Source of the DNA: a bacterium
GTDB lineage: Bacteria > Patescibacteriota > Minisyncoccia > UBA6257 > JAGOQP01
Direction: 5' to 3'
Length of the DNA stretch: 64,000 bases
NCBI GenBank assembly: GCA_021780615.1
Contig: JAJXYJ010000021.1
Span: forward strand, 3,819-67,818
Below the pieces are notes generated by a model. It was not told the origin of the DNA, searched no databases, and saw nothing but the letters and a program-made list of their open reading frames with translations. Each line of letters starts with the position of its first letter. Position 1 is the first letter of the stretch. This document shows positions 2 through 55,065 of the stretch, one piece after another. The position numbers and the translations under genes were made by a program.

Positions 2-772
2 ATTTTCCGCACGCGCGAATTTGAGCAGATGGAAATAGAATACTTTATCAAGAAGGATAACTGGCAGGAGCAGTTTGAAGGGTGGCTTTCGGAAATGAAA
101 AAATGGATGGCTTTCATCGGACTTCCCGAAGACCGGATTCATTATCTTGAAGTTCCCGACGGCGAGCGTGCGCATTATTCCCAAAGAACGGTGGATATTG
201 AATTTGATTTTCCCTTCGGTAAAAAAGAATTATACGGATTAGCGTATCGCGGCAACTTTGATCTTCAGAGTCATCAGGATGCGAGCGGGCAAAGCATGGA
301 ATACTTTGATGAGGAAACAAAAGAAAAATTCATTCCGCATGTTATAGAGCCGAGTTTGGGTGTTGAGCGGACGGTACTGGCATTATTGACGGGGGCGTAT
401 CGCGAAGATGAGCAAAACGGCGAGGTGCGTGCATATCTCGATTTAAACATGCAGGTGGCGCCCTATAAGGCGGCGGTATTTCCTTTATTGGCCAATAAGC
501 CGGATCTGGTTACCAAAGCACAGGAGGTGCGCAAGGCAATACAGGGTGCGGGTATGACATTTTTGCCGGTGGCGTTTGATAAAGGGGGTAATATCGGCAA
601 GCGGTATCGCAAGCAGGATGAAATTGGCACGCCGTATTGCTTTACCGTTGATTTTCAAACATTGGAAGATGACACGATAACGGTTCGCGAACGAAACTCC
701 GCCACACAGGAGCGAATCAAAGTATCCGAAGCAAGAAAGTTTATTGAGGAGAAGATGAGAGGAGACCTATAA
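2..772 (+). CDS. glyQS: Glycine--tRNA ligase (GlyQS-type), C-terminal part. The 5' end is truncated by the window edge.
   Basis: The frame is open from the window start and reads IFRTREFEQMEIEYF. It carries HYSQRTVDIEFDFPFG and VIEPSLGVERTVLALL, which are characteristic of class II GlyRS anticodon-binding and catalytic regions. Confidence 0.8.
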   Translation: MFRTREFEQMEIEYFIKKDNWQEQFEGWLSEMKKWMAFIGLPEDRIHYLEVPDGERAHYSQRTVDIEFDFPFGKKELYGLAYRGNFDLQSHQDASGQSMEYFDEETKEKFIPHVIEPSLGVERTVLALLTGAYREDEQNGEVRAYLDLNMQVAPYKAAVFPLLANKPDLVTKAQEVRKAIQGAGMTFLPVAFDKGGNIGKRYRKQDEIGTPYCFTVDFQTLEDDTITVRERNSATQERIKVSEARKFIEEKMRGDL

Positions 773-779
773 TTTATAA

Positions 780-930
780 TTTACGATTTACAATTTTTCC
801 GCCCAGGCGGACCCCTCCCGCTTCGCCGAAGCTTCAGCGAGGCGAGTCGGAGCAATCAATTTTCCAATTACTTAATTTCAAAATTCAGAAATTTATTGAT
901 CATTGGAAATTGATAATTAAAATTTTTATA
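780..930. repeat. AT-rich aaattg/caattt-type intergenic repeat with a GC-rich hairpin core (about 797..860). It is the reverse-orientation copy of the motif seen at 34760..34827 and inside the 23S intron.
   Basis: The reverse complement reads aaaattgattgc...gggaggggtccgcctgggcggaaaaattgtaaatt. This parallels gattgcccggagggtccgccctgttcgacagggcggaaaaattgtaaattgaaaatt at 34768. Confidence 0.5.
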
Positions 931-932
931 CC

Positions 933-2210
933 ATGCATCACGTCCATCAAAAAGAATATAAAAACGGATTGCGAGTATTGGTTATTCCGCTTCCTGATGC
1001 GCTTTCAGTGACCACTGCGGTGTTCGTTGAAGCGGGAACGGCCTACGAGCAAAAACATAATAACGGCATCTCTCATTTTTTGGAGCATATGTGTTTTAAG
1101 GGGACTCCGCGTCGTCCACTTCCCATTGATGTTACTGCCGCATTAGAAGGTATGGGAGCTTCATATAATGCGTTTACGAGTCGAGACATGACCGGATACC
1201 ATGTAAAAGTTGCTCCGAAATATGCGGCAAGGGCATTTGATATTATTGCGGATATCTATCTGCATGCAATGGTGCCAGAGCAAGAAATTGAAAAGGAAAA
1301 AGGGGTTATTATTGAAGAAATACGAATGTATGAAGACGAACCTCGCGCTAAGGTAAGTGAAACGCTTGAGTCATTGTTGTATGGCGATCAACCTGCCGGA
1401 TGGCACATTGCAGGAACTCCTGATACGGTGAGGGCCACCACCCGCGAAGCATTTATAAAGTATCGAGATACGCATTATGTCGCCTCAAAAACTATTGTCG
1501 TGATTGCCGGTGCCGTTGACGTGCGGACTGCTCAGCAATGGATAGAAAAATATTTTACAAATCTTTCCCGAGGAAAACGTCAAAAAAATGAGGTAGGAAG
1601 CTATAAACACACCAAACCTTCTGCGCGAGCAATTCATCGTGCATTGGATCAGACACATTTTGCTCTGGGCTTCCATACCGTTCCTTTAGCTGACAAGAGG
1701 CGATTTGCGCTTTCGCTTTTGGCAAAGGTGTTAGGATCTGGTATGAGTTCGCGATTATTTCAGAAGGTGCGGGAAGAAATGGGTGCTGCATACTACATTG
1801 GAGCGGCAAACAATTTTTTTAAGACGCATGGATATCTTGAAGTGTATGGGGGATTGAATCATGAAAAGGTGCCCGTGGTGCTCAGGGCGGTGGCCAATGA
1901 GTTACGGCGTATGAAAGAAACGTTGGTGCCGGACAATGAATTAAAACGGGTAAAGGACTATACTGCCGGAAAGTTTTTACTTTCATTGGAAACATCCGAT
2001 GATTTAGCTTTTTCATATGGCCAAGATCTTATTGAAACAGGAAAAGTGGAAACCCCCGCACAAGCCATTGCTCGTATGCGCGCGGTAACCGCGACAGACA
2101 TTCGTCGCGTGGCGCAAGAATTTTTAACTCCCCAGCGAATGAATCTCACCTTCATCGGTCCCTATCAGAAAACCGATGAGGAGAAGTTTTTAAAGATGCT
2201 TACTATCTAA
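933..2210 (+). CDS. M16 family zinc peptidase (insulinase-like)
   Basis: The inverted zinc-binding motif HFLEHM is near the N-terminus. The 425-aa length and overall pattern fit PqqL/M16 peptidases. Confidence 0.8.
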   Translation: MHHVHQKEYKNGLRVLVIPLPDALSVTTAVFVEAGTAYEQKHNNGISHFLEHMCFKGTPRRPLPIDVTAALEGMGASYNAFTSRDMTGYHVKVAPKYAARAFDIIADIYLHAMVPEQEIEKEKGVIIEEIRMYEDEPRAKVSETLESLLYGDQPAGWHIAGTPDTVRATTREAFIKYRDTHYVASKTIVVIAGAVDVRTAQQWIEKYFTNLSRGKRQKNEVGSYKHTKPSARAIHRALDQTHFALGFHTVPLADKRRFALSLLAKVLGSGMSSRLFQKVREEMGAAYYIGAANNFFKTHGYLEVYGGLNHEKVPVVLRAVANELRRMKETLVPDNELKRVKDYTAGKFLLSLETSDDLAFSYGQDLIETGKVETPAQAIARMRAVTATDIRRVAQEFLTPQRMNLTFIGPYQKTDEEKFLKMLTI

Positions 2211-2545: not shown

Positions 2546-3565
2546 ATGGAAAGAATTGTGCATGACATATCATGGGGGTCCCTATGGAAAATAGTGGCAA
2601 TCGGCATATTGGTGGCGGCGCTTTTTTATGCTCGAGACGTTATCGTGATCACCTTCATTGCCGTCATTGTTTCGTCGGCACTCTATCGGCCTGTGGCTTA
2701 TTTGGAAAAAAAGAAAATTCCTCGTATTTTAAGTGTGCTGGTTATTTTTATTCTTGCGGCGGCGGCAGTGGGTGTTATTTTATATATCTTGGTTCCGGTG
2801 GTGCTCATTCAAATGAAGTATTTTCTCTCTAATATCAACAGCTTCAAGATTCCTTTCCTTGATTCTTTGGGGGCGTCCAATATTATTGCATCACTTAATA
2901 CGAGCGTCAGTGATTGGGTGGGACAGTTGTTTTATGGCGGATCAAATTTTTTGAACGTAGTGGGTGCTTTTTTGGGAAATATTGTGCTTGCCTTCGTGAC
3001 CGTCGTCCTTTCTTTTTATTTGGCTATCAGCAAGGGCGCGATTGAACGTTTTATCCGCTCCATCATGCCTAAAAGTAAGGAAGAGTACGTTATTAATTTA
3101 TACATTCGCACGCGACATCGTCTTGGGAAGTGGTTTACCAGCCAGCTCATTTTGAGTTTTTTTGTGGGAGCGCTTACCTTTATCGGATTGCTCATTGTGG
3201 GAACGGACTACGCGCTCGTGCTGGGTATTTTGGCGGCAGTGTTGGAAATTATTCCATACGTCGGTCCTATTGCTATTGGTGTCATTAGTTTTATCATTAT
3301 TTTGCCGCAATCGGCATCAGCGGCGTTGTTGGCCGTTATTATATTCTTTATCATTCAACAATTAGAAAATCATGTCTTAGTGCCTCTTATTGTGGGAAAA
3401 ACAGTGGGCATTGATCCAGTATTAGTGGTTATTGCCATCTTAGCCGGATCATCGCTTGATGGGCTGGTAGGCGCCCTCATTGCGGTACCTGTCGCCATTG
3501 TTCTTGAAGAGGTGATTGACGATTGGTCTGTTAAAAAGAATACTCTGCAAGAAGTTATTGATTAG
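2546..3565 (+). CDS. AI-2E family transporter (PerM/UPF0118-like membrane protein)
   Basis: It is a multi-TM protein. Its N-terminal region FIAVIVSSALYRPVAYLEKKKIPRILSVL and conserved C-terminal P-Y-G-P-I block (IPYVGPIAIG) are typical of the AI-2E family. Confidence 0.7.
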   Translation: MERIVHDISWGSLWKIVAIGILVAALFYARDVIVITFIAVIVSSALYRPVAYLEKKKIPRILSVLVIFILAAAAVGVILYILVPVVLIQMKYFLSNINSFKIPFLDSLGASNIIASLNTSVSDWVGQLFYGGSNFLNVVGAFLGNIVLAFVTVVLSFYLAISKGAIERFIRSIMPKSKEEYVINLYIRTRHRLGKWFTSQLILSFFVGALTFIGLLIVGTDYALVLGILAAVLEIIPYVGPIAIGVISFIIILPQSASAALLAVIIFFIIQQLENHVLVPLIVGKTVGIDPVLVVIAILAGSSLDGLVGALIAVPVAIVLEEVIDDWSVKKNTLQEVID

Positions 3566-5119: not shown

Positions 5120-5902
5120 ATGGATATACATGTTATTGATGCTCATACTCATATACAGCTAACTGATTTTGACGCCGATCGGGAGGCGGTTATTGCTCGT
5201 GCCGCAGAAAAAGGTGTTGGGATGATTGTGGTGGGGGTGGATGGAAAAACATCACAAGGAGCCGTTTCCATTGCCCAACAGCACGAACATATGTGGGCGG
5301 CGGTGGGGTATCATCCACACGATGCCGATGATTTTTTTGACACCCGTGATGCCATCGATGCATTGGCGCACAGAAAGGAGGTGGTGGGTATCGGCGAATG
5401 CGGGCTGGATTATTTTAAATTAGATACGCATCTTCATCCCGATGAAGCGCATCAGCAAAAAGAATTATTTCGTTGGCACATTGATCTATCACATCGTGCA
5501 CGCAAGCCCTTAGTCATTCATTGTCGTGAAGCATTCGCTGACACGCTTTCAATACTTGAAGCAGAAAAAGAAAACCTTTTAAAAGAACCGGGTATCTGTC
5601 ATTTTTTTACAGGCACTATGGATGATGCACGACGATTGCTTGCACTTAACTTTTCCTTTACCTTCGGCGGATTAATGACGTTTAATCGGAGTTTTGATGA
5701 AGTAATTCGCTTTATTCCCTCCAATCACATACTGGTAGAAACCGACGCGCCATTTGTATCCCCAGTGCCTCATCGGGGAACGCGCAATGAACCGGTATAT
5801 GTGCTTGAAACAGTTTCATTTCTTGCTCGTATAAAAGAAAAACAGGAAGTGGAGATGAAAGAGACTCTTTTAAGCAATACCCAACGGGTGTTTGGCATAT
5901 AA
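5120..5902 (+). CDS. tatD: TatD family metal-dependent hydrolase/DNase
   Basis: The N-terminal DAHTH, the GIGECGLDY block and a length of about 260 aa are typical of TatD. Confidence 0.85.
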   Translation: MDIHVIDAHTHIQLTDFDADREAVIARAAEKGVGMIVVGVDGKTSQGAVSIAQQHEHMWAAVGYHPHDADDFFDTRDAIDALAHRKEVVGIGECGLDYFKLDTHLHPDEAHQQKELFRWHIDLSHRARKPLVIHCREAFADTLSILEAEKENLLKEPGICHFFTGTMDDARRLLALNFSFTFGGLMTFNRSFDEVIRFIPSNHILVETDAPFVSPVPHRGTRNEPVYVLETVSFLARIKEKQEVEMKETLLSNTQRVFGI

Positions 5903-16120: not shown

Positions 16121-16288
16121 CACCAGGCGCAATTTTCAATTTACAATTTTCAATTTACAATCAATTTTTAATTATTTAATTTTTTTAGAATTAATCGAAA
16201 GAGGAAGGTGTGTGCCAAAGGGTGAGGAACTAAAAAACAAAAATTATTCTTCCTTACTACATACTACCAGCCCCTTACTACTGCTGTC

Positions 16289-28948: not shown

Positions 28949-29027
28949 TTTTACTAATGATCAATTTTCAGTTTTCAATTGATTAATTTTAAAATTTTAA
29001 ATTAAGATTTGATTTCAAATTTTCACC

Positions 29028-34675: not shown

Positions 34676-34827
34676 ACCCGAAGCGGGAATTTTCATTTTT
34701 CAGTTTTCAATGATCAATGAATTTTTAAATTTTAAAATTGATTAATTGTAAAATTGATTGCCCGGAGGGTCCGCCCTGTTCGACAGGGCGGAAAAATTGT
34801 AAATTGAAAATTGATAATTACATTCAT

Positions 34828-35434: not shown

Positions 35435-37102
35435 ATGACCTCCCGTCGCCTATACACCATTCTCATTATTGCCGTTTTGACGACGGTATTTTTATATGGA
35501 CTACACAGCATCGCTGATTTTGATACGGGATATCATCTGCAAACCGGGCACTACATTGTCACCCATGGTACGGTACCATTGTATGATATTTTTTCTTTAC
35601 AGGGAGTGGGGATGCGATGGATTGCGCATTACTGGCTTTCGGATGTTTTCTTTTTTCTCGTCTATGCGCTGAGCGGCTATGGAGGGCTCATTGTCTTGGT
35701 GGGAGCAATGGCGGCACTGACATGGTGGATGGTCATGCGTACTGCATACCAATACACGGGAAAAAGTTTTCTGGTGCCACTGTTGCTTTTACTCTACACC
35801 TATCTCACATACGAATTGTGGGTAGTTCGTCCGCAGATATTTACCTATGCCGCGACTGCGCTGGTGATATATCTTTTGGAGCGATGGCGGCGAACTGAAA
35901 ACAAAAAAATTCTTGTCGGCGTTATTGCGCTTATGGTGGTGTGGGCAAATCTTCATGCGGGAGTCATTCTCGGTATCGCTATTGTGGGATTGTACGGTAT
36001 CGCGTATGCGTATCATCGTCGTGCGCAGATACGGGACGCTATTATGCCGCTTGGGTTATTTGTTGCCGCCATTGCAGTGACACTCCTTAATCCGAATGGG
36101 TATGCGACGCTATGGTATGGACAGATCATAGAAAATTCCATTCAAACGGTGGGAACATTGGAGTGGAAATCACTTTTGTATTTTCTTCCCGATACCATTG
36201 AATCCAAAATATTTTTGGCCCTTATGGTTGTCGTCGCGGCGCATGTGGGGTGGGTTGTTTTCGGGCGCATCCGCCGTACGCGAGCTGTTTCTCAGGAGGA
36301 TATTGTGTCGTTGGGGTTGTTGGCGGGAGCATGCGCATTGCCGCTTATGTCTATTCGGCATGTGGGGCTGTTTCTTATTATGACATTTCCTCTTTTTGTC
36401 ATGAGTGTGCAAACACTGTATGCGCATCGCGTATCATTACACGTACGAAAAACTTTTTTGTTGGGGGCCATGGGGCTAGTGGGAATTTTTTGCATTGGGG
36501 GACTGGTGCATGTACTGGGATTGCAGGAAATAAATGATCACATGCTTCCGGTGGGTGCCGTGCAGTTTATACAGGATCACCACATTGCCGGTCCGACGTT
36601 TAATAATATGGAAATGGGAGGGTATTTGATTTGGACATTGTGGCCTCAACAGAAAGTATTGTTTGACGGCAGAAGCGAGATATATGCCGGTGCGGCGAAT
36701 GACAACTATGTTTCAATATTTTTAGGATCAGCCGGATGGCAGAAAGCATGGGATGCATATCATCCGAATAATGTATTGTTGGCATATCGGGATACCAATG
36801 GTGTTCCTGCGCCGATTGTGGGCAATCTTATCGCGCGCTTGCAGAGCATGGGATATGACCTGGTGTACTGGGACGATGCAGCAGTTCTATTGCTCAAAGA
36901 CACGCCGGAAAATAAATCTATTATTGATGCATACATGTATCACGACATTGGTCCTTTTATTAATCCCGCTTCTATTCCGGCAGGGGAGGTAAAAAATGCG
37001 ATGACAGAAGTACACCGCGCCCTTGATGCGGCATCCGATTCCATAGAGGTACAAAACTTTGCGACACTGCTGTTGCAACGCATAAAAAATAATTATCAAT
37101 GA
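35435..37102 (+). CDS. Large polytopic membrane protein, possibly a GT-C-type glycosyltransferase
   Basis: It has about 12 TM helices followed by a soluble C-terminal domain. Its start is 2 nt after the LTD gene stop. Function is inferred only from topology. Confidence 0.45.
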   Translation: MTSRRLYTILIIAVLTTVFLYGLHSIADFDTGYHLQTGHYIVTHGTVPLYDIFSLQGVGMRWIAHYWLSDVFFFLVYALSGYGGLIVLVGAMAALTWWMVMRTAYQYTGKSFLVPLLLLLYTYLTYELWVVRPQIFTYAATALVIYLLERWRRTENKKILVGVIALMVVWANLHAGVILGIAIVGLYGIAYAYHRRAQIRDAIMPLGLFVAAIAVTLLNPNGYATLWYGQIIENSIQTVGTLEWKSLLYFLPDTIESKIFLALMVVVAAHVGWVVFGRIRRTRAVSQEDIVSLGLLAGACALPLMSIRHVGLFLIMTFPLFVMSVQTLYAHRVSLHVRKTFLLGAMGLVGIFCIGGLVHVLGLQEINDHMLPVGAVQFIQDHHIAGPTFNNMEMGGYLIWTLWPQQKVLFDGRSEIYAGAANDNYVSIFLGSAGWQKAWDAYHPNNVLLAYRDTNGVPAPIVGNLIARLQSMGYDLVYWDDAAVLLLKDTPENKSIIDAYMYHDIGPFINPASIPAGEVKNAMTEVHRALDAASDSIEVQNFATLLLQRIKNNYQ

Positions 37103-37240
37103 CCAATTTCCAATGATCAATAAATTATTCAGTTTAATAATTTTATAATTTAAAAATTGATTGAAAATTGTAAATTGAAAACTGAAAATTTGCGGTTGCC
37201 GCGTTATCCCCACCTTATACCCAAACACGCCTTGTGAAGC

Positions 37241-37269: not shown

Positions 37270-37848
37270 CACCCCCATGGTGCTTTATATACAAAAGATA
37301 CGCGGGTGAAACGGTGCCGGCTTTATGTTGTCACACCTCATCCGCCGCGCGCGGATTTTTTATGCCACGACAGTCTTTTGAGAAAGTGCTCGTCCTTCAA
37401 AAACATAGGGGATTTAAGAAAGCGTCGCTGACTGATCCCATATCAGAACAATTGAGCAATGTAAACTCAATGTAGGTATGCTTTTTGCAGGACATAACAC
37501 TTCTGTAAAAAGTAGAGAAATGCATTTTCATCCTGCGTATGAACAATACAAAAGGATATGATCAAAAAATGAGCGTTTACTCAAGGGCGTATGGTGGATG
37601 CCTTGACACTGCATGGCGATGAAGGACGTAGCGTAGCTGCGAAAAGTCTCGGGGAGGTGCGTAGCAACCTGTGATCCGGGAATATCCGAATGGGGCAACC
37701 CAGTTGCGTAAACCGCAACTATCTCAACACATAAGATGTTGAGGAGCGAACCCGCTGAAGTGAAACATCCCAGTAAGCGGAGGAAAATAGAACGAATGTT
37801 ATTCCCCTAGTAGCGGCGAGCGAAAAGGGAATGAGCCCAAACCTAGAC

Positions 37849-37995
37849 GCATCTCACCAAGGTAAGATGCTTGGGAATTATCAATTTCCAATTTCCAATT
37901 TTCAATCAATTTTCTAATTTTAAAATTTCTAAATTTATTGATCATTGATAATTGATCATTGAACATTTTCTAAGCACCTCGCTTTCGTGAGGTGC
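37849..37995 (+). other. 23S intervening sequence 1. Its ends are complementary and its body is AT-rich.
   Basis: It begins gcatctcaccaagg.agatgcttggg, has an aatttccaatt-repeat body and ends gtgaggtgc. The ends pair as gcatctcac with gtgaggtgc. Confidence 0.55.
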
Positions 37996-38258
37996 GACTG
38001 GGGGTTGTAAGATATGTGCGCTTCTTTATATTTCGCCAAGTACTTGGCATCTCAAGTATTGGGCGATGTATGAAGTTAAGGAAGAGTTACAAATTATTTT
38101 GCTAGCAGAACCTTGTGGAACCGAGGACCGTAGAGGGCGAACGTCCCGTATGCGAAAGCAAAATAACTCTTTAGCATGTAATCTTGAGTACCTCGAAAAA
38201 TGAATGTTTCGAGGGAATCATCCCGCACTATCGGGAAAGGCTAAATACGTGCAGTGAT

Positions 38259-38295
<37 letters not shown>

Positions 38296-39693
38296 CAGGC
38301 CGGCGAGGCCGATGAAATAGAACCTGAAACCATATGCCTACAAGGAACGGGAGCTCTAACTCCGATTTATCGGAGGGAGTGACCGTGTGCCTATTGAAGA
38401 ATGAGCCAACGAGTTTTTGTGTATCGCTGTCTAAGTTCCACGGAACGGAGGCAAAGCGAAAGCGAGTCTTAAAAGGGCGAAATAAAAAGCGGTACGCATA
38501 AGACCCGAAGCCAGGTGAGCTTGCCATGAGCAGGGTGAAGTCTCGAGAAATCGAGATGGAGGCCCGAACCGGTTGGTTGTGCAAAACCTTCGGATGACTT
38601 GTGGTAGGGAGTGAAAAGCTAATCGAACCTGGTAATAGCTGGTTCTCTCCGAAATAGTTTTAGGACTAGCGTCCCGGAAAAACGCTACAGGGGTAGAGCG
38701 ACTGGTAGAGAAGTAAAGGGGGAAACCTCGCCTTCTCTGTCAAACTCCGAATACTGTAGTGAACGCCGGGGCAGTCAGAATGTGGGGGCTAAGCTCCATG
38801 TTCGCGAGGGGAAGAGCCCAGACCGTCAATTAAGGTCCCTAAATCTATGCTCAGTGTAAAAAGTAGTGATTTGCCTCAGACAGGTAGGAGGTTGGCTTAG
38901 AGGTAGCCATCCTTTAAAGAGTGTGTAACAACCCACTACTAGATGGCAGGTTGCGCTGAAAATTTACCGGGGCTAAGCATAGTACCGAAATTACGGATTT
39001 CCTTTATTATTTATAATAAAGGGAGTGGTAGGAGAGCATTCCGTATGCGCTGAAGCCGGACCCGTGAGGGCCTGTGGAGCGTACGGAAGGGAGAATGTTG
39101 GTATGAGTAACCGCAATCCCGATGAGAATTCGGGACCCCGAAAATCCAAGGTTTCCTCCGCAATGGAAGTCAGCGGAGGGTTAGGCGGTCCTAAGGCAAT
39201 GGCGAAAGCCGCAGCTGATGGACAGCAGGTTAATATTCCTGCCCGCCTGTACGGTCCGATGGAGGGACGATGTGTAGTATATAGAGTGTCTCAGTGGTTT
39301 GGCATCCTTAACTGAGGATCTCCGGTAGGCAAATCCGCCGGGGTGCTTTTAATGGCAAATCTAAGGAAAGAGGTGATGTCCGCCTTTGGCGGGTAAAGTT
39401 TATAAAGCACACATCCAAGAAAATCTTCTAAGGATAACCGTATAGGCTCCGTACCGTAAACCGACACTGGTGGGTGAGGCGAGAAGCCTCAGGGGAACGA
39501 GTGAGTCATCCTCAAGGAACTCGGCAAAAAAGCGACTGTAACTTAGGAATAAAGTCTGCCCTGAGCAATCAGGGCCGCAGCGAAAGTATCTCTGGCGACT
39601 GTTTACTAAAAACACAGCTCCCTGCAAACTCGTAAGAGGAAGTATAGGGGGTGACACCTGACCGATGCGAGAAGGTTAACGGTGGAGGTGTAT

Positions 39694-39867
39694 GCATCTC
39701 ACCAAGGCGAGATGCTTGGGAAATTTTTAATTTCCAATTTTGTAATTTTTAAATAAATCTTAATTTTTAATGTTTTAAACATTATGATTTTGAATTTATT
39801 TACAAAATTCAAAAATTAAAAATTATAAAATTATCTTGAGCACCCAGCTTTTGTGAGGTGTATATGC
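39694..39867 (+). other. 23S intervening sequence 2, of the same family as IVS 1
   Basis: It has the same 25-nt 5' module, catctcaccaaggcgagatgcttggg, an AT-rich body, and 3' gtgaggtgtatatgc pairing with the 5' end. Confidence 0.55.
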
Positions 39868-40611
39868 TTACTGCCCGAAGCCCTCGTCAATGTCAGCGGT
39901 AACTATAACCGTTCTAAGGTAGCGCATTTCCTTTCCGGGTAAGTTCCGGAGCGCACGAATGGTGTAACGACTGGAGAACTGTCTCGAGGATGAGCTCGGT
40001 GAAAATGCGATTCCCGTGAAGACGCGGGGTACCTGCAGCGGGACGAAAAGACCCCAGGAGCTTTACTGCAGCTTGATATTGGTAGTAGAGTTTGTATGCG
40101 TAGCATAGTGAGGAGGCTTTGAAGTTTGTCTTTCGGGGCAGATGGAGCCGACAGTGAAATACTCATCTTGCGAATTTTACTCTCTAACCTTGCGGGCAAA
40201 AACCGTAGGGGACAGTGTCTGGTGGGCAGTTTTAATGGGGCGTTATCCTCCTAAAAAGTAACGGAGGAGTTTAAAGGTCAACTTAGTCCGGATGGAAATC
40301 GGACTGAAAGTGTAAAGGCAGAAGTTGGCTTAACGGCAAGACGTACGTGTCGCGCCGATGCGAAAGCAGAACTTAGTGACCCGACGGTAATGTTAAACAC
40401 TTTTTTTAAAAGAGTTTGACTCTTCATAGGAAGGCCGGAGACAACGGATAAAAGCTACCCTGGGGATAACAGGCTGGTGAGGTCCAAGAGTCCATATCGA
40501 CGACCTCGCTCGGCACCTCGATGTCGGCTCACCCTAGCGCGGGGCTGGAGAAGGTCCCAAGCGTTTGGCTGTTCGCCAATTAAAAGGGTACGCGAGCTGG
40601 GTTTAGACCGT

Positions 40612-41117
40612 TCAGATGCCAAATATATAGTTTGGCAGATGGACAGTCTAAATCCCATGAGGCGTTATTCTAAATTATTTCAAATTTCAAATCTTTTCGT
40701 TTCAAACTAGATTAAATATAACCAATAGATCACGGCGGTCATACGTAGAAATATGTATGTATCAAGATAGCTTATTTCGGAGAATTCCCACCCGCAGATG
40801 CGGAGGAGGACCCCGAGGGAAACCTGACTATGCAGTGCATGGAATTTTTAATTTTAAATTTTGTAATTTTTATTGAATTTTTAATGTTTTAATTTTAAAT
40901 TTTAAAATTGATTCATTTATAAGTTGATTGCCCTATAGGGGTCCGCTCATAGCGGAAAAATTGGAAATTGTAAATTGAAAATTATCACTTTTGAAAGTGA
41001 TAAAGGTGCCCGTAGAGACTACACGCTATCCATCCGATTCAATAAGCAGGAGTGTATCCTGATCTTGTCGAAGGATGATGTTATAGTCCAATGCGCATCG
41101 TAATATGCGGAATCATG
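40612..41117 (+). mobile_element. ORF-less group I intron in the 23S rRNA at the I-CreI-type site (E. coli about 2593)
   Basis: The exon context is GGGTTTAGACCGT^...^CGTGAGACAGGTTGGTC. The 5' exon ends in U and the intron ends in G. P7-like GACTAC...TAGTCC elements are present. The intron contains an embedded copy of the dispersed repeat. Confidence 0.6.
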
Positions 41118-41529
41118 CGTGAGACAGGTTGGTCTCTATCTGCTGCAGGCGTTGACACTTGAGGGAAGTTGGCCCTAGTACGAGAGGACCGGGCTGAACG
41201 AACCTCTGGTCTACCAGCTTTGGTACCAACTGAAGCGCTGGGTAGCTATGTTCGGAAGGGATAAGCGCTGAAAGCATCTAAGCACGAAGCCCCTCCCAAG
41301 ATAAGGTGTCTTAGGACCCTGGAAGATGACCAGGTTGATAGGCTCTCGGTGTACGCACAGTAATGTGTTTAGCCAAGGAGTACTAATAGTCCATTTGAAC
41401 GCTCTTTTTTGAGCAGGTATCATGTGTTTCTCTACTTTTTAAAGAAGTGTTATTGAGTGTATACAGTGTGCTTAATTGTTTTGATATTATATAGTGTACG
41501 AAGCAAACGAAAGATAAAAAAATACTTTC

Positions 41530-49718: not shown

Positions 49719-49809
49719 TATTGACATATATTTCTATTCATGATATAATACATCAACATAGTCAAGGTGATTATGGAGTACATAATAATTTAATATTTGG
49801 AGGTATGCG

Positions 49810-50463
49810 ATGAAAAATCGTAAGCTATCAGTGCATGTAGAACATGAGCTTTTATTAAAGCTTGAATCTGCTGGTTTAAATGATGACTTGGCACAAAGAA
49901 TCATTGAGTCGAAAGGAAACAAAATTGCAAAGCAGATGATTGGAATTATCTTACCAGAATCGGCCACAGATGAACGCTTTGAATTTGTAAAAGAGTTCAA
50001 ATTCACTGTTCCGACTGATTATGACCATGCGACACAGCTGGCAACATTTGCCAAAGCACATAAAAAAGGATTTTATTACTACAACGACGATATTACCGAT
50101 ACCAATTTTGCCAAAGCGACCAATAAACTGGTTCCCGGCAAAACATATACGGTAAAAATCTTCGGCATTAAACAAACATTTCAGTCACAGGACGGCTTGG
50201 ATCTCATTGCTTCACAGAAAGGGATCCTTGCCGGTGCACAGGGTGCAAGCTTAGTATATCAACTTGCAAAAGACGAACTCCCCAAAGGCAAATGGTATAT
50301 ATCATTTGATGAAAAGAATGCCCTTTGGGTCGACTCCGATGGCTTCCACCGCGTTCCGTACGTGGGTCGCAGCTCGGACGGCGGTTTCGGGTTCTACCTC
50401 GGCTACTTCGGGAATGAGTGGGGTTCTGATGACTGTGTCTTGTGTTTCTGCGACTCTGAGTAG
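49810..50463 (+). CDS. DGR target protein, with the variable region at the C-terminus and no signal peptide
   Basis: The last 41 codons correspond to the variable repeat (VR). Confidence 0.75.
   Translation: MKNRKLSVHVEHELLLKLESAGLNDDLAQRIIESKGNKIAKQMIGIILPESATDERFEFVKEFKFTVPTDYDHATQLATFAKAHKKGFYYYNDDITDTNFAKATNKLVPGKTYTVKIFGIKQTFQSQDGLDLIASQKGILAGAQGASLVYQLAKDELPKGKWYISFDEKNALWVDSDGFHRVPYVGRSSDGGFGFYLGYFGNEWGSDDCVLCFCDSE
50334..50456 (+). repeat. DGR variable repeat (VR)
   Basis: It is 123 nt, homologous to the template repeat at 50828..50950, with 18 differences. Sixteen of those fall at positions where the template repeat has A, changed to T or G in the VR. Confidence 0.8.
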
Positions 50464-50514
50464 TACTTTGGATCTTTGGTTCTTAACGATTGCGCTAAGA
50501 CCCTTAGATCCTTT

Positions 50515-50537
50515 TAGCCCTTGCAAAGCAAGGGCTA
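50515..50537 (+). promoter_or_regulatory. GC-rich hairpin downstream of the VR, in the position of the DGR homing hairpin
   Basis: tagcccttgcaaagcaagggcta has a 10-bp stem and a 3-nt loop, about 55 nt after the end of the VR. Confidence 0.5.
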
Positions 50538-50827
50538 AATTTTATATAGTGACTATGGATAGTAGATGAGATCATGCGGCTACTTCCTGCCTGCCGGCAG
50601 GCAGGGCTTCATGACGTCGAATTCTCGTAAAAGATTCTTGTCAGTAGTTCGTCGGATTGTTCGCTTGTAGCGGGTATATCTTACGGGCGTGCACATCCTT
50701 TATACGAAAAAATCACAGAGTCGGTGCGATATATGAGGGAGTACATAAAACTCCGCAAACTATTCAAGAAGTGACCGGCGTTACTTCTGGTGTCAGGGAA
50801 CATACATCGTACGCTAATGGCACGGCA

Positions 50828-50950
50828 CTCCGATGGCAACCACCGCGTTCCGAACGTGAATCACAACTCGGACGGCGACTTCAAGTTCAACCTCGGCAAC
50901 TTCGAGAATGAGTGGAATTCTGATAACTGTGTCTTGTGTTTCTGCTACTC
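50828..50950 (+). repeat. DGR template repeat (TR)
   Basis: In the target frame it carries 8 AAC (Asn) codons plus AAT, AAG and GAG at the positions that vary in the VR. A hairpin with a T-run follows at 50960..50990. Confidence 0.8.
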
Positions 50951-50966
50951 GTCTGATTTCTCCCGT

Positions 50967-51350
50967 TTATTGAGCGGGAGTTTTATTTTCTATCTGTCGC
51001 TTCCATCCTCCTAACATACGTCCTACTTCATCAAGTGATAACATGAGCACGCCGTAATGTTTGTTGTCTAAAATTTCATGTTCCCATGCGATTTGCAAAA
51101 GAAATTTCAATAAATCGCTGTTGGCGATAGACGAGGAGACAAAAGATAGTTTTTCAAGCTTATTTGAAGCGAAACTTGTACGAAATAGGTGTTCAAGAAA
51201 TACTAAAAACACATCATCAATTCGTATCCCTATGGTGTATCGATCAATTCGCTTTACATGTATAAGTATCTCATGCCACACTTTGTAGGTGTTTTTTGCC
51301 TTCATAAGCACAAGCGGTGCTTGTGCGGGGGGGGGGAGTAAAATTTTCAT
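50967..51350 (-). CDS. avd: Avd-like accessory protein (four-helix bundle), start uncertain
   Basis: The C-terminus, SLDEVGRMLGGWKRQIENK, resembles the Avd / 23S rRNA IVS protein family. Possible starts are at 51350 (abutting the reverse transcriptase ATG) or at 51305. Confidence 0.5.
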   Translation of the reverse strand: MKILLPPPAQAPLVLMKAKNTYKVWHEILIHVKRIDRYTIGIRIDDVFLVFLEHLFRTSFASNKLEKLSFVSSSIANSDLLKFLLQIAWEHEILDNKHYGVLMLSLDEVGRMLGGWKRQIENKTPAQ

Positions 51351-52321
51351 ATGTTTAATCAAAAGTATATAAACACTATAACCATAGAAAATATTCTTGC
51401 AACATGGAAGCAGTTTTTGCGCGGGAAAAAACAAAGAAAAGATGTGATGTTATTTCAAAGTAGATTGACTGAAAATATATCAGAGTTATTTTTTGAACTA
51501 CGCAATCAAACGTATGTGCATGGTTCGTATGTGGCGTTTAATGTTTCAGATCCGAAACCGCGCATAATTCATAAAGCTTTGGTGCGAGATAGAGTTATTC
51601 ATCATCTCATATACAAGACGTTGTATTCCTATTTTGACGAACGCTTCATTCACGATTCATATTCATGCAGAAAAGAAAAAGGCACACATCGTGCGCTTGA
51701 TCGGTTTAACACATTCGCTCGTAAAGTGTCTCAAAATTACACACGCACGTGTTATGTACTTAAATGTGATATACGAAAGTTTTTTGCGAACATAGACCAC
51801 GGGGTACTTATACAAATTTTGCAAAGACACATTGCGGACGAGGATATGCTTTGGCTGGTTGGGCGAGTAATACAGAGTTTTTATTCTGGCGCAGAAGGGT
51901 GGGTCTGCCACTTGGTAACCTTACCTCACAATTGCTTGTCAATGTATATATGCATGAATTCGATATGTATATAAAGCAAGGACTGCGAGCAAAATATTAT
52001 ATCCGTTATGCAGATGATTTTGTAATACTTTCTGATAGCAAGACACATCTTGAGGATCTGCTTATAAAAATAGATCTATTTCTTAATCAAGAACTTCATC
52101 TTTCTTTACACAAAGATAAAACATATATTAAAACATATGCGTCCGGTATTGATTTTCTCGGATGGATACATTTTCCTCGGTATAGGCAACTACGCACCAG
52201 TACCAAGCGACGGATTATAGAAAACATGAGATGGTATCCAAAACCGGAAACAATAAATTCATATAGTGGACTTTTGGGGCATGGAAATACATATAAAGTG
52301 CGAAAACAAATAGGACTATGA
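51351..52321 (+). CDS. DGR reverse transcriptase, split into two ORFs by a -1 frameshift near 51890
   Basis: The N-terminal ORF reads ...YVHGSYVAFNVSDPKPRIIHKALVRDRVIHHLIY...FIHDSYSCRKEKGTHRALDR. The second frame reads GLPLGNLTSQLLVNVYMHEFD and YIRYADDFVIL (YxDD). These are the hallmark DGR reverse transcriptase blocks. The frames switch at agaagggtgggtctgcc. Confidence 0.85.
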
Positions 52322-52416: not shown

Positions 52417-55065
52417 TTACTCTAAATGTATTCTTTCTCGAAATAACTTCACGTAGGCGGCTAAATACGGATATTCCGAAAGCGTCGGATTGGTGGCGAT
52501 GAGTTTAAACGCTTCATCGCGGGCCGATTGGACAAAGAGGGGATTCTGCATTGCCTGCATAGCAAGGTCGGGAAGCCCCGTCTGCTCGCTTCCCAAAAAT
52601 TGCCCCGGGCCACGGAATTTTAAATCCTTTTCTGCTAATTCAAATCCGTTTTTAGCCGTGATGAGTGCTTTAAGGCGCGCTTGGGTAGTTGCCGCCCGGC
52701 TGTCGGTCAAAAGGAAACAATATGATTGGTGCTCGCCCCGGCCCACACGACCACGGAATTGGTACAGCTGTGCCAAGCCGAATTTTTCGGCACCTTCGAT
52801 CATCATAATCGTTGCATTGGGCACATCCACACCCACTTCAATAACAGACGTGGACACCAGTATATCAATGTCGCCATCTTTGAATTTTTTCATGATGGCG
52901 TTCTTTTCCTGTGCTTTCAGTTGCCCGTGCAACATGCCAACGCGCAGGTCAGGAAATATTTTTTTGGAAAGTTTGTCATATTCGGTCTCCACATTCTTTG
53001 CATCAAGCCATAACGCGGACTTACGCTGACTTGACCCTCCTCCGCGTAAAGCTCCGGAAGGGTATGACGCGGAACCACGCAGACCGGAGTCGGCGTATGT
53101 CGGCGTGCTGTCTGCGTCTGTCTGCGCATCCGATGGTTCTATGCGCGGGCACACCACATAAATCTGCCTGCCTTCCTGGACGTGTTGGCGGATGAATGCG
53201 TATGCATCGGGGCGTTGGGCGGGGGGTACGATTTTAGTCACGATAGGCTTTCTATCCTTGGGAAGCTCATTGATAAGCGAAAGTTCCAAATCGCCAAAAA
53301 CGGTGAGTGCCAACGTGCGGGGTATGGGGGTGGCGCTCATGCTCAGAAAATGAGGACTTAACGCGGACGTACGCTGACTTGACGCAGACATTTGCTGACG
53401 GGCAGTATCATATACAATTCGTTTTATTTCTGCAGTGGTATTTGAAAAGTTAATGAGTAGAGCAAGTTTATAAGGAGATCCTTTTAGATATGTCCATATT
53501 TGTCTTTCTTCTGTTTTACCTACATAAGGGAGAGCTTTCAGCTCCACAATAATCTTATTTTCAACAATGAAGTCGGGCCTGTATATTCCTATTTTTTTAG
53601 TTCCATATATCACATCTATAGCCTTTTCTTTTTGGAAAGAAATATTTTTATTTTTAAACTCTTCTTCCAATGCTTTTTGATATAGCAGTTCCTTATGCCC
53701 TAGCCCAAGGTTTTTTCTTACGGCAAAAGCTGCTTCTCGTATTGTGTATGTAATATCTTCATAAAGAAGCTTGTTATTTTCTGCGTCAGTCTGCGTCTCA
53801 GTCTGCGATTGTCCGCGTTCAGAGAGCAGGGCTCTCTGATGGACCCCAAAGCGATGCTGTTCATCAATGACTACCAATCCCACATCCTTGAACGCGATGC
53901 TTTTTTGTATGACGGCGTGAGTGCCGATAATGATGTGTACCTTGCCGGCAGCAATGTATTCGGCAAGTTCTTTCTTTTGTATGTCGCTTTCCAGCCCATC
54001 ACCAAAAAATATGGCGGTATGTGATGCGGTCAACAACGCCACGCCATCTGAAAAATTTTTAAAGAATTGTTTGAATGTGCGGTAATGTTGGAGCGCGAGT
54101 ACTTCGGTGGGAGCCATGAATACCGCTTGTTTTTTGTGTGAGGCAACAACAAGTCCTGCGATCGCGGCAACAATGGTTTTTCCTGATCCGACATCTCCCT
54201 GCAGGAGTCGGTTGGTGGCATGATTTTTTGCCAGATCTTCTAAAATTTCATAGAGCGCTTTTTTTTGCGCGAGAGTAAGGTCAAATGGCAGGCAGGAGAA
54301 ATACTCCTTAATTTGTTGGGGGGTGTATGTGCATGCGGAGGCGGGTTGATGGGCGAATTGGTCCTTTTCGCGCGCGTTGATAAGCTGTAGCAAAAACAGG
54401 TCTTGGAATGCGAACCGGTCCCGAGCGTGCGCCGCCTCTGCAAGCGTTTCGGGGTAGTGGATCATGCGGAATGCGTCGGCGATGAGGGGGAAGTTATGGC
54501 TTTCAATGATGTTGGCTGGAAGGAATTCTTCTATGTCCGCGGCATAATCCATGACTTTATCAAGGACAAATCGAATGCCTTTGGAGGTAATGCCTTTGGT
54601 TTCGGGATATATGGGCACGATGCGGGCGGTATGTTTGGGGGCGTAGTGCTCGTGGGAAATGATTTCAAATTCGGGGTTGGAAAGATATAGTTTTTTGCCG
54701 TTGTGGGATACTTTGCCGGCGAGGTTGACGCCCATACCTTCCTTGAAGGTGTTTAATAAATAGCGTTGATTGAACCAGGTTGCCTGTATTTTTCCCGTTT
54801 CATCGGTGATGGTAATGGTAATGACCAGCAGATGCCGGCGGAATGTTTTGGATACCGATATCTTTTCGATGAGCCCATACACCGTTGCCACCTCGCCTTC
54901 CTCGACATCGGCGATGTTTTTAATCTGCGAAAAATCCTGGTAGCGGAATGGCAGGTGGTACAAAATATCTTTGACTGTCACAATGTTGAGCTTGGCGAGT
55001 TTTTCGGTAAATCGGGGTCCGATACCCTTGATATCCGAGAGTGGTGTTGCCAGAGAAAGTTGCAT
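52417..55065 (-). CDS. recG: ATP-dependent DNA helicase RecG, with a large in-frame domain insertion
   Basis: It has an N-terminal wedge domain and helicase motifs GDVGSGKT, DEQHRFGV, SATPIPRTL and QFRGRVGRG. Extra segments lie at about 53353..53811 and about 52984..53136. Confidence 0.9.
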   Translation of the reverse strand: MQLSLATPLSDIKGIGPRFTEKLAKLNIVTVKDILYHLPFRYQDFSQIKNIADVEEGEVATVYGLIEKISVSKTFRRHLLVITITITDETGKIQATWFNQRYLLNTFKEGMGVNLAGKVSHNGKKLYLSNPEFEIISHEHYAPKHTARIVPIYPETKGITSKGIRFVLDKVMDYAADIEEFLPANIIESHNFPLIADAFRMIHYPETLAEAAHARDRFAFQDLFLLQLINAREKDQFAHQPASACTYTPQQIKEYFSCLPFDLTLAQKKALYEILEDLAKNHATNRLLQGDVGSGKTIVAAIAGLVVASHKKQAVFMAPTEVLALQHYRTFKQFFKNFSDGVALLTASHTAIFFGDGLESDIQKKELAEYIAAGKVHIIIGTHAVIQKSIAFKDVGLVVIDEQHRFGVHQRALLSERGQSQTETQTDAENNKLLYEDITYTIREAAFAVRKNLGLGHKELLYQKALEEEFKNKNISFQKEKAIDVIYGTKKIGIYRPDFIVENKIIVELKALPYVGKTEERQIWTYLKGSPYKLALLINFSNTTAEIKRIVYDTARQQMSASSQRTSALSPHFLSMSATPIPRTLALTVFGDLELSLINELPKDRKPIVTKIVPPAQRPDAYAFIRQHVQEGRQIYVVCPRIEPSDAQTDADSTPTYADSGLRGSASYPSGALRGGGSSQRKSALWLDAKNVETEYDKLSKKIFPDLRVGMLHGQLKAQEKNAIMKKFKDGDIDILVSTSVIEVGVDVPNATIMMIEGAEKFGLAQLYQFRGRVGRGEHQSYCFLLTDSRAATTQARLKALITAKNGFELAEKDLKFRGPGQFLGSEQTGLPDLAMQAMQNPLFVQSARDEAFKLIATNPTLSEYPYLAAYVKLFRERIHLE

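Follow-up and report, generated by a model that had tools for sequence, protein, structure and literature searches.

The region 49721-52321 of the window (the whole 64,000-nt stretch of DNA that was analysed) is a self-contained diversity-generating retroelement (DGR) cassette of the type dominant in CPR/Patescibacteria (architecture B3, DGR clade 2), most likely inactivated recently and with its variable repeat (VR) frozen, whose close relatives are still diversifying. Along the window the cassette comprises a promoter-like site, a target gene with the VR at its C-terminal end, a putative terminator, a structured RNA leader, the template repeat (TR), a conserved hairpin with a U-run, avd on the opposite strand, a hairpin with a poly-G tract, and the gene for the reverse transcriptase (RT). 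The adenine pattern of the VR/TR mismatches, the best match of the RT to what we take to be the DGR RT of a Bordetella phage, the matches to Avd models, and the C-type-lectin model of the target identify it as a DGR in which TR sequence was transferred to the VR by mutagenic homing specific for adenines. A preliminary description of this DNA had reached the same core interpretation, now upheld by independent comparative evidence, but it was wrong to call the cassette complete: three assemblies show an RT broken into two frames, and within the lineage the VR does not vary.

Variable and template repeats

The VR (50333..50456, forward strand, at the 3' end of ORF 49810-50463) and the TR (50827..50950, forward strand, 400 nt upstream of the RT) form an ungapped direct repeat of 124 nt, the sole such pair in the 64-kb window, in which no second VR was found. 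They differ at 18 of the 124 positions, and at 16 of these 18 the TR has an adenine (11 A>G, 5 A>T, no A>C); 16 of the 30 TR adenines were changed compared with 2 of the 94 other TR bases (Fisher p = 3.2e-10). Each of the 16 adenine mismatches concerns the first or second base of a codon, for the most part AAY. Re-alignment and tabulation by TR base thus bore out the repeat and the mismatch count of the preliminary description, with a length of 124 nt and starts at 50333 and 50827, and the TR and VR peptides quoted there are correct.

The TR is near-invariant among sister loci whose VRs differ. Three non-A differences between the TR of the window and that of the sisters (positions 29, 75 and 93) are copied in the VRs of each lineage, the one departure being position 29 of a single sister VR, and this mirroring shows a flow of information from TR to VR. 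One of the two non-adenine exceptions, TR position 120 (T in the TR, G in the VR), is fixed in both the window and the sister lineages, and a TR difference at position 124, past this point, was not passed to the VR; with respect to the IMH/IMH* directionality element of DGRs, the fixed T/G pair appears to mark the 3' boundary of transfer in both lineages.

The reverse transcriptase and the activity of the element

The RT gene (51351..52321, forward strand) lacks one base at 51897-51899 and is thereby broken into two ORFs (51351-51974 and 51851-52321), the first of which contains FIHDSYSCRKEKGTHRALDR and the second, in the -1 frame, GLPLGNLTSQ and YIRYADDFVIL. At this site relatives read GAG GGT GTT GGG CTT (E G V G L) and the window reads GAA GGG -TG GGT CTG. 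The preliminary description was right about the DGR blocks and the family of the protein, but it assumed one intact gene and missed the deletion that leaves the blocks in two ORFs. The repaired RT is 88% identical to an intact RT of 324 aa from a relative; it reads ...GVGLPLGNLTSQ... and YADD, and its LGNLTSQ corresponds to the (I/L)GxxxSQ block (motif 4), and its YADD to the YxDD block, typical of DGRs. Its best PDB match is 8ub7_A (listed as "Reverse transcriptase", E = 1e-35, compared with 4e-17 for group II intron RTs), which we take to be the bRT of Bordetella phage BPP-1, and its match to phrog_1423 has an E-value of 1e-99. Together with the motifs, these matches would place the RT in the DGR clade. 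No extra domain, e.g., maturase X or endonuclease, was found by profile searches in the repaired protein of 323 aa.

Three separate assemblies carry the frameshift: a MAG from NCBI, one assembly from ENA and one from Logan. In the lineage of the window the VR is identical in 6 of 6 assemblies and the target protein is a single sequence across 9 contigs (the frameshift assemblies may stem from one study, possibly from one population, and identity would likewise be expected from a clonal bloom or from a systematic error common to them), whereas in sister genomes, whose RT is intact and 88% identical, at least 8 distinct VRs occur, with variation confined almost entirely to template adenines. Among four sister VRs, 23 of the 25 variable positions are TR adenines, and in a sister protein cluster of nine members with eight distinct VRs, 19 of the 21 variable columns lie in residues 178-210. 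At the level of assemblies, VR polymorphism beside a near-invariant TR was found in the sister lineage and not in the lineage of the window. One contig (L091) leaves the sequence of the window within the TR and runs on into unrelated DNA, and the base at the junction is of the sister type; the contig was treated as an assembly chimera and excluded. Close relatives with an intact RT therefore appear to be still diversifying, and the element in the window genome was probably switched off by the one-base deletion. A frozen VR is not proven by these data, since consensus assemblies hide minority VR variants, and the inactivation can be recent at most, because the cassette has no decay besides the frameshift.

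We consider it unlikely, though not negligibly so, that the DGR is instead fully active and that the frameshift is a sequencing or assembly error, is overcome by -1 ribosomal frameshifting at GAA-GGG-U, or is compensated by an RT supplied from elsewhere in the genome. The remaining cassette is intact (85-97% identity per 100 nt to active sisters over most of its length), both RT halves are stop-free in their own frames, and the three frameshift assemblies could have upstream data or methods in common; but a run of three or four G is not a typical site of short-read error and the three separate assemblies agree. Programmed -1 frameshifting is improbable, as the site has no slippery heptamer and the frameshift occurs in none of the homologs listed, all of whose RTs are single ORFs (most of ~324 aa). 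A second RT or Avd is absent from the 64-kb window, although an RT outside it could act in trans, and the single VR in six assemblies of the lineage stands against the at least 8 VRs of the sisters, which likewise speaks against an active element.

Target gene, avd and RNA elements around the template repeat

A promoter-like site (49721..49749, forward strand; TTGACA-17-TATAAT with an extended -10 TG, 12/12 consensus match) precedes the target gene, and it is here that homology with the sister cassette starts. The target gene (49810..50463, forward strand) encodes 217 aa, modelled as a helical N-terminal part of low confidence followed by a C-type-lectin-like domain; the VR constitutes the last ~44-45 residues. 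The C-terminal fold, for which the preliminary description gave no prediction, was thus predicted to be that of a C-type lectin. Sequence profiles detected no recognisable domain in the target, and it has neither a TM segment nor a signal peptide. The absence of the latter two had been noted correctly, but it had been called unusual, while according to published work (PMC8144416) most DGR targets of CPR (clade 2) share it as a typical trait. The neighbouring Hsp20 gene, listed among the unusual features as well, is incidental, because the sister cassette sits between thrS and dnaE.

The target gene is followed by a hairpin (50513..50539, forward strand; 12 pairs, loop AAA, then TTTTATAT), and a weak promoter-like site (50521-50550) overlaps it. 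Many relatives have similar hairpins with T-runs 20-85 nt after the VR. The preliminary description had compared this hairpin to the homing hairpin of the Bordetella phage DGR; the hairpin exists, but it looks like a terminator of the target gene, because it lies ~60 nt beyond the VR (4-34 bp in phages), its loop is AAA and not GRNA, and a T-run comes next. There is perhaps a small chance that it acts as a Bordetella-type homing hairpin or cruciform, instead of or besides terminating transcription, given that many DGRs have a GC-containing inverted repeat downstream of the VR and that the authors of the phage DGR hairpin work described the hairpin-VR distance as "quite flexible". However, its GC stem begins ~60 nt past the end of the TR/VR homology, the 4-nt GRNA loop is replaced by AAA with a T-run after the stem as in intrinsic terminators, the hairpins of relatives are located at variable distances with perfect stems detected in only part of the loci, and high-confidence repeats are found in only 34% of DGRs, all of which speaks against a homing role.

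Comparison of related loci revealed a structured RNA of ~250 nt, supported by covariation, 5' of the TR. It includes stem-loop A (50571..50615, forward strand; RNAalifold, 53 loci), the stem of which covaries and has a G.U pair in 51 of the 53 loci; the loop of the window version contains an additional, inserted GC palindrome. Stem-loop B (50662..50689, forward strand) has the same motif. An A-rich run (50704-50723) then precedes a three-way junction (50724..50812, forward strand; P1 50724-50735/50801-50812, P2 50737-50754, P3 50767-50788) with conserved junction strands. In its 21 pairs, 93.6% of the cells are paired (33-51% in slid controls) and 393 cells show double changes (112 in shuffles, the observed value being reached in 0 of 500), and the junction was recovered by single-sequence folding.

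On the other side of the TR, 9 nt after its end, a conserved hairpin (CUCCCG...CGGGAG, 50960-50980) is followed by a U-run (together 50960..50990, forward strand) and overlaps the last avd codons of the other strand. It occurs in 61 of 62 loci, with conserved outer pairs and covarying inner pairs, and TTTT comes next in 56. This hairpin, pointed out as terminator-like in the preliminary description, is therefore real and conserved, but the production of TR RNA by read-through from the target gene, also suggested there, is not favoured, because a terminator-like hairpin and the conserved leader lie between the target gene and the TR. In 207 of 278 DGRs that contain Avd, an "Avd-binding stem-loop just downstream of TR" has been proposed (bioRxiv 10.1101/2023.10.23.563531), to which the hairpin of the window is comparable.

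No Rfam 15 family matched the leader, the CUCC/GGAG hairpin with its U-run, or the poly-G tract, and an E-value scan of 50300-51450 produced only one match, of chance level, to anti-hemB (E = 0.22), located at the hairpin 3' of the TR. The three elements are unmentioned in the DGR literature examined, a set that does not contain the primary CPR-DGR paper (Paul et al. 2017, Nat Microbiol 2:17045). Among candidate long-range duplexes between the leader and the 3' end of the TR or the region after it (an analogue of Bordetella priming or of the "cPRT stop"), only A-run/U-run complementarity passed the filter; an AGTYG/CRACT pairing noticed by eye as a leader-TR duplex fails across loci.

The avd gene (50967..51305, reverse strand, 112 aa) lies 45 nt from the RT start. 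Avd is common in DGRs but not universal. The product matched the Avd models against which the preliminary description had proposed to compare it, i.e., NF033474 DivGenRetAVD (E = 4.6e-14, just under the curated cut-off), PF22296 bAvd (38 bits, cut-off 40) and phrog_3206 "Avd protein of DGR" (E = 7e-11). Its position on the minus strand had been recognised but regarded as unusual, while avd occupies an equivalent place and orientation in every related locus with enough flank. An inverted repeat, GCACAAGC-GGT-GCTTGTGC, followed by G10 at 51327-51336 (together 51308..51336, forward strand), lies in the gap between the starts of the divergent genes avd and RT. A G-run of at least 7 is present in this gap in 51 of 62 loci, compared with 5 G/C runs of at least 7 in the other 440 kb. 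The poly-G length is 10 or 9 in the window lineage and 10 or 11 among the sisters; across the clade the repeat is a poly-G of 7-14, or (GT)n in one locus.

Relation to known systems and proposed mechanism

The order and strands of VR-TR-(avd)-RT are the same in all of the ~80 related loci with enough flank (mostly named Patescibacteria or Paceibacterota MAGs), and an A-biased TR/VR pair was found in 56 of 62 analysed loci. The 23S rRNA gene in the window has ~900 nt of insertions; insertions of such size are typical of CPR genomes. In CPR, 90% of the DGRs have architecture B3, TR-(avd)-RT (Wu et al. 2018, PMC5758913). The cassette resembles these CPR-type DGRs (B3; DGR clade 2, Roux et al. 2021, PMC8144416) in the order and strands of target/VR, TR, reversed avd and RT, in its Patescibacteria host, small RT (~324 aa), chromosomal location and few non-A substitutions, and in a target without recognisable domain, TM segment or signal peptide; it differs from them in the frameshifted RT of the window genome. 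The three features flagged as odd in the preliminary description are the norm in this clade. As a DGR, the element is nothing new in kind, and thousands of CPR DGRs with exactly the same layout are known.

With the prototype, the DGR of Bordetella phage BPP-1 (mtd-avd-TR-brt), it shares adenine-specific TR-to-VR transfer, AAY codons, an Avd partner, a VR at the 3' end of the gene for a C-type-lectin-fold protein, a homologous RT, and a stem-loop just 3' of the TR. Unlike in BPP-1, avd is inverted and situated between TR and RT, which leaves no space 3' of the TR for a free spacer (Sp) of ~140 nt; instead, a conserved structured RNA precedes the TR and the 3' hairpin has a U-run behind it, the hairpin next to the VR is farther off and terminator-like, and the target is no phage tail protein and has no phage context. 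The target is also similar to the AvpA-type variable proteins of nanoarchaea and CPR, which are small, cytoplasm-like and without signal peptide, and whose VR-bearing C-terminal CLec-like fold is missed by sequence profiles (the divergent C-type-lectin fold of the AvpA type has been cited as a novel CLec subtype; PMC5758913).

The chance is negligible that this is no DGR and that VR and TR are an ordinary duplication or gene-conversion tract beside an unrelated group II intron- or retron-type RT: the top NCBIfam match of each RT half is a sub-threshold group II intron RT/maturase model (uninformative, because NCBIfam has no DGR-RT model) and the database names of homologs include "retron-type" and "group II intron" RT, but the finding that 16 of 18 mismatches are at template adenines and in the first or second codon position (p = 3e-10), the recurrence of this pattern in the 56 of 62 loci, and the match to 8ub7_A (taken as the Bordetella DGR RT) ~60 bits above group II RTs effectively refute it already, and Avd is present. 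Group II intron and retron RTs are marked by intron RNA domains or msr/msd, by a maturase (X) or endonuclease domain and by the lack of a TR/VR pair; the RT here, of only ~324 aa, stands beside such a pair and has neither of the two domains, and Rfam detected no RNA of an intron or retron in 50300-51450 or elsewhere in the window.

For the DGR we propose a mechanism by analogy with that of the Bordetella phage, in which transcript ends, priming site and the role of the leader are derived from conservation only. The TR RNA, ~430 nt long, would probably be transcribed from its own promoter near 50550 and end at the hairpin and U-run near 50990. An RT-Avd complex would copy the TR into cDNA with misincorporation opposite adenines, and the cDNA would replace the VR up to the fixed boundary near TR position 120, which would rewrite ~16 residues on the ligand-binding face of the C-type-lectin-fold target. 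The present VR probably records past rounds of homing, and the RT of this genome has since lost one base and been split into two frames.

Taken jointly, the observations allow a tentative reading, possible rather than probable, that the template RNA of this very large CPR DGR clade is built unlike the Bordetella paradigm. The ~250-nt 5' leader (a pair of stem-loops with G.U pairs, the A-rich linker and the three-way junction) would serve as a scaffold for RT/Avd binding and priming, the RNA would end in the CUCC...GGAG hairpin with its U-run 10-15 nt after the TR, and the hypermutable repeat between the divergent starts of avd and RT would stochastically switch hypermutation on or off, or adjust its dosage. 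If so, the window would be a natural RT knock-out with a frozen VR beside active sisters. The frameshifted RT and invariant VR, against sisters with intact RTs and many VRs, would give a clean natural control for calls of DGR activity in metagenomes. In a layout that leaves no room for a Bordetella-like spacer 3' of the TR, the leader 5' of the TR and the hairpin with U-run 3' of it are a testable candidate for the assembly and RT priming of B3-type DGRs. Expression of the mutator may be phase-variable, as is suggested by the poly-G tract between avd and RT, which is conserved but polymorphic in length.

Repeat pair, reverse transcriptase and Avd

Once AT-rich simple families were set aside, the repeat search in the 64-kb window left a single long direct repeat (50333-50456 and 50827-50950, plus strand; 124 nt, no gaps, 85% identity), the first copy of which, the variable repeat (VR), makes up the last 44 codons of the ORF 49810-50463, and the second copy of which is the downstream template repeat (TR). 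Realignment, with the mismatches tabulated by TR base, gave 18 mismatches, 16 of them where the TR has A (11 A to G, 5 A to T), and bore out the mismatch numbers and peptides quoted in the preliminary description. TR adenines were altered in 16 of 30 cases and other TR bases in 2 of 94 (Fisher p=3.2e-10); the 16 adenine mismatches all hit the first or second base of their codon, which is AAY in most cases. The sole mismatch neither at a TR adenine nor at the boundary (window 50385; TR C, VR T) is synonymous (GGC to GGT, after an A to G change in the same codon); either the reverse transcriptase (RT) erred on a template base other than A, or a point mutation followed homing.

The RT is split over two ORFs (51351-51974 and 51851-52321, the second in the -1 frame), which match the first and second half of the RVT_1 profile, respectively. 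Alignment with intact 324-aa relatives located the break between ...SGAEG and VGLPLGN..., where the relatives have GAG GGT GTT GGG CTT and the window has GAA GGG -TG GGT CTG, one base being lost at 51897-51899. This deletion, overlooked when the cassette was first called complete, is also present in the NCBI MAG contig DAIEGZ010000013.1 (GCA_027355965.1; essentially the same as the window), in the ENA assembly ERZ27236897 and in the Logan assembly SRR17201898. Every RT homolog among the matches listed is a single ORF, so recoding at a conserved frameshift does not account for the break. The best PDB match of the repaired RT was 8ub7_A (E=1e-35, 127 bits; a group II intron RT scored 66 bits), which is titled only "Reverse transcriptase" and which we take to be the Bordetella phage DGR (diversity-generating retroelement) RT. 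The motifs LGNLTSQ and YADD are present, and phrog_1423 matched at 1e-99. The NCBIfam match is to group II, below threshold, and is uninformative because NCBIfam lacks a DGR-RT model.

The avd gene (50967-51305, minus strand; 112 aa) matched DivGenRetAVD (4.6e-14), bAvd (38 bits; cut-off 40) and the PHROG "Avd protein of DGR" (7e-11), and no other Avd-like (rRNA intervening-sequence) protein was found elsewhere in the window. The host is a CPR bacterium: RT relatives are mostly from Patescibacteria or Paceibacterota MAGs, and the 23S rRNA gene (37571-41406; 3836 nt vs. the 2925-nt model) carries about 900 nt of insertions, of a kind typical of CPR genomes. AT-rich direct and inverted repeat families of the AATTTTCAATTT type are scattered over the window (770-936, 16130-16203, 28970-29026, 34681-34820, 37080-37197, 37849-37972, 39694-39821 and 40843-40930), and several lie within the 23S rRNA gene or next to it; one pair (37849-37894 and 39694-39739) has a GC hairpin-like start, GCATCTCACCAAGG..GAGATGC.

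Together with the VRs of sister loci, the VR/TR bias and the RT and Avd matches support the original core reading of a DGR with adenine mutagenesis. The element is a genuine DGR, belongs to the CPR type that has been well described, retains an intact adenine-mutagenesis record and, as a DGR, is ordinary.

Layout and homing record in related loci

A scan of genome collections recovered 80 loci (RT identity 53-88%), 62 of which were analysed for TR and VR. An A-biased pair was found in 56 of the 62; no more than a few tens of nt separate the TR from the avd stop, and in every locus but one the cassette's own VR precedes the TR by 256-416 nt. An avd gene that runs antisense to the RT and sits immediately 5' of it had been considered unusual but is universal in related loci with enough flank. 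This layout, TR-(avd)-RT, is architecture B3 in Wu et al. 2018, who give its share of their CPR set as 90% (PMC5758913). Nor is the absence of a signal peptide or transmembrane segment from the target exceptional, as CPR clade 2 targets are typically without a recognisable transmembrane or other domain (Roux et al. 2021; PMC8144416). In L011 (VRs at 2439-2560 and 5226-5347) and in L079 (VRs at 2514-2639 and 5229-5354), a further A-biased VR follows the RT, so a single TR serves two target genes in these two relatives.

The adjacent hsp20 gene, also remarked upon earlier, is incidental: the window cassette (49721-52321) is flanked by hsp20 and recG, that of the sister lineage (L001-L006) by thrS and dnaE. 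The two are homologous only between the target promoter and the RT stop codon, which defines a discrete module of about 2.6 kb, and the different neighbours therefore imply relocation or horizontal transfer as a unit. The RecG helicase (52417-55065, minus strand; 882 aa) has, according to Pfam matches, a PDDEXK_3 nuclease-like domain inserted between the helicase lobes, and low-complexity stretches there as well.

The six sister loci (same cassette; 88% RT identity to the repaired window sequence) have nearly identical TRs and diverse VRs, with 25 variable positions among four distinct VRs, 23 of them at TR adenines. Window and sister TRs show three non-A differences within the mutagenised part (repeat positions 29, 75 and 93), where the VR has the base of its own lineage's TR, except at position 29 in one sister VR. 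At position 120 the TR has T and the VR has G in both lineages alike, and at position 124 a TR difference between the lineages is absent from the VRs (no transfer). As judged from these sequences, the pattern is what directional transfer from TR to VR leaves behind when its 3' boundary is fixed (cf. IMH/IMH*).

In the sister target-protein cluster, the 9 members carry 8 distinct VRs and all but 2 of the 21 variable columns fall within residues 178-210 (19 columns); the window-lineage target protein was found as one sequence only, on 9 contigs. The DGR was most likely inactivated recently in the window lineage and is most likely inactive now, because the intact RT pairs with many VRs and the frameshifted RT with one, a comparison limited by VRs taken from consensus assemblies with possibly shared sampling. 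One contig (L091; ENA ERZ27236874, k141_994654) tracks the window to mid-TR (window-equivalent 50919), where a TR base of the sister type appears and unrelated sequence takes over; most probably the assembly joined two molecules at the repeat to give a chimera.

Hairpins, structured leader and poly-G tract

Both hairpins of the preliminary description were recovered (50513-50539 and 50960-50980, plus strand). The first has 12 pairs and an AAA loop followed by TTTTATAT, and its GC stem begins about 60 nt past the end of TR/VR homology, whereas in Bordetella-type homing hairpins the distance to the VR is 4-34 bp and the loop is a 4-nt GRNA (PMC3240598). Distance and loop thus argue against the Bordetella-type homing role proposed for it; we read it as a putative terminator of the target gene that may also have a second role. 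The second hairpin overlaps the last avd codons on the opposite strand and is kept in 61 of 62 loci, starting 9 nt past the TR in the window and mostly 10-14 nt past it across loci, with UUU before it and, in 56 loci, UUUU after it; its outer pairs (C-G, U-A, C-G, C-G) are kept and its inner pairs covary. It fits a proposal by Handa et al. (bioRxiv 10.1101/2023.10.23.563531), made for 207 of 278 DGRs that contain Avd and covering CPR as well, of an Avd-binding stem-loop just 3' of the TR, and it is also shaped like an intrinsic terminator.

Conservation within the cassette peaks in the approximately 260 nt preceding the TR, which are 93-97% identical to the sister locus; coding parts reach 81-94%. 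This structured leader (50571-50812, plus strand; columns 132-265 of A5, the multi-locus alignment of this region) consists of two covarying stem-loops with a shared motif (50571-50615 and 50662-50689), an A-rich linker and a three-way junction (P1 50724-50735/50801-50812, P2 50737-50754, P3 50767-50788). The junction was obtained with RNAalifold across 62 loci, and the window sequence alone also folds into it; its 21 pairs are 93.6% paired (33-51% in partner-slid controls), and it has 393 double-change cells vs. 112 in column shuffles (0 of 500 shuffles as high). G.U pairs, present in the stem-loop motif in 51 of 53 loci, make the structure plus-strand-specific. Rfam 15 gave no match for the leader, and a limited search of the DGR literature found no mention of it.

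The Bordetella DGR has a spacer 3' of its TR, whereas here antisense avd occupies that place, leaving no room for one, and the structured RNA lies 5' of the TR. For this reason we infer, by analogy, that the leader could be the functional counterpart of the Bordetella spacer, binding RT-Avd and organising priming. A search for covariation that would pair the leader with the TR 3' end gave no such duplex. Read-through from the target gene had been suggested as a possible source of the TR RNA; the terminator-like hairpin after that gene and a weak promoter-like site (50521-50550) make an independent TR transcript of about 430 nt more likely.

The gap from the avd start (51305, minus strand) to the RT start (51351) holds an 8-bp inverted repeat with G10 (51308-51336, plus strand). 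Of the 62 loci, 51 have a plus-strand run of 7-14 G in this gap, at a distance of 362-407 nt from the end of the TR, and only five G/C runs of at least 7 occur in the remaining 440 kb of the same loci. In L011, whose RT starts at 3501, (GT)n, another slippage-prone simple repeat, takes the place of the poly-G some 30-50 nt before that start. Assemblies that are otherwise nearly the same differ in tract length (10 or 9 for the window lineage, 10 or 11 for the sisters), and the tract could be a Shine-Dalgarno-like element for the RT, a slipped-strand (phase-variable) switch, or homopolymer assembly noise on a conserved element. Both the RNA leader and the poly-G tract are features of the clade as a whole that have possibly not been described before and merit expert attention.
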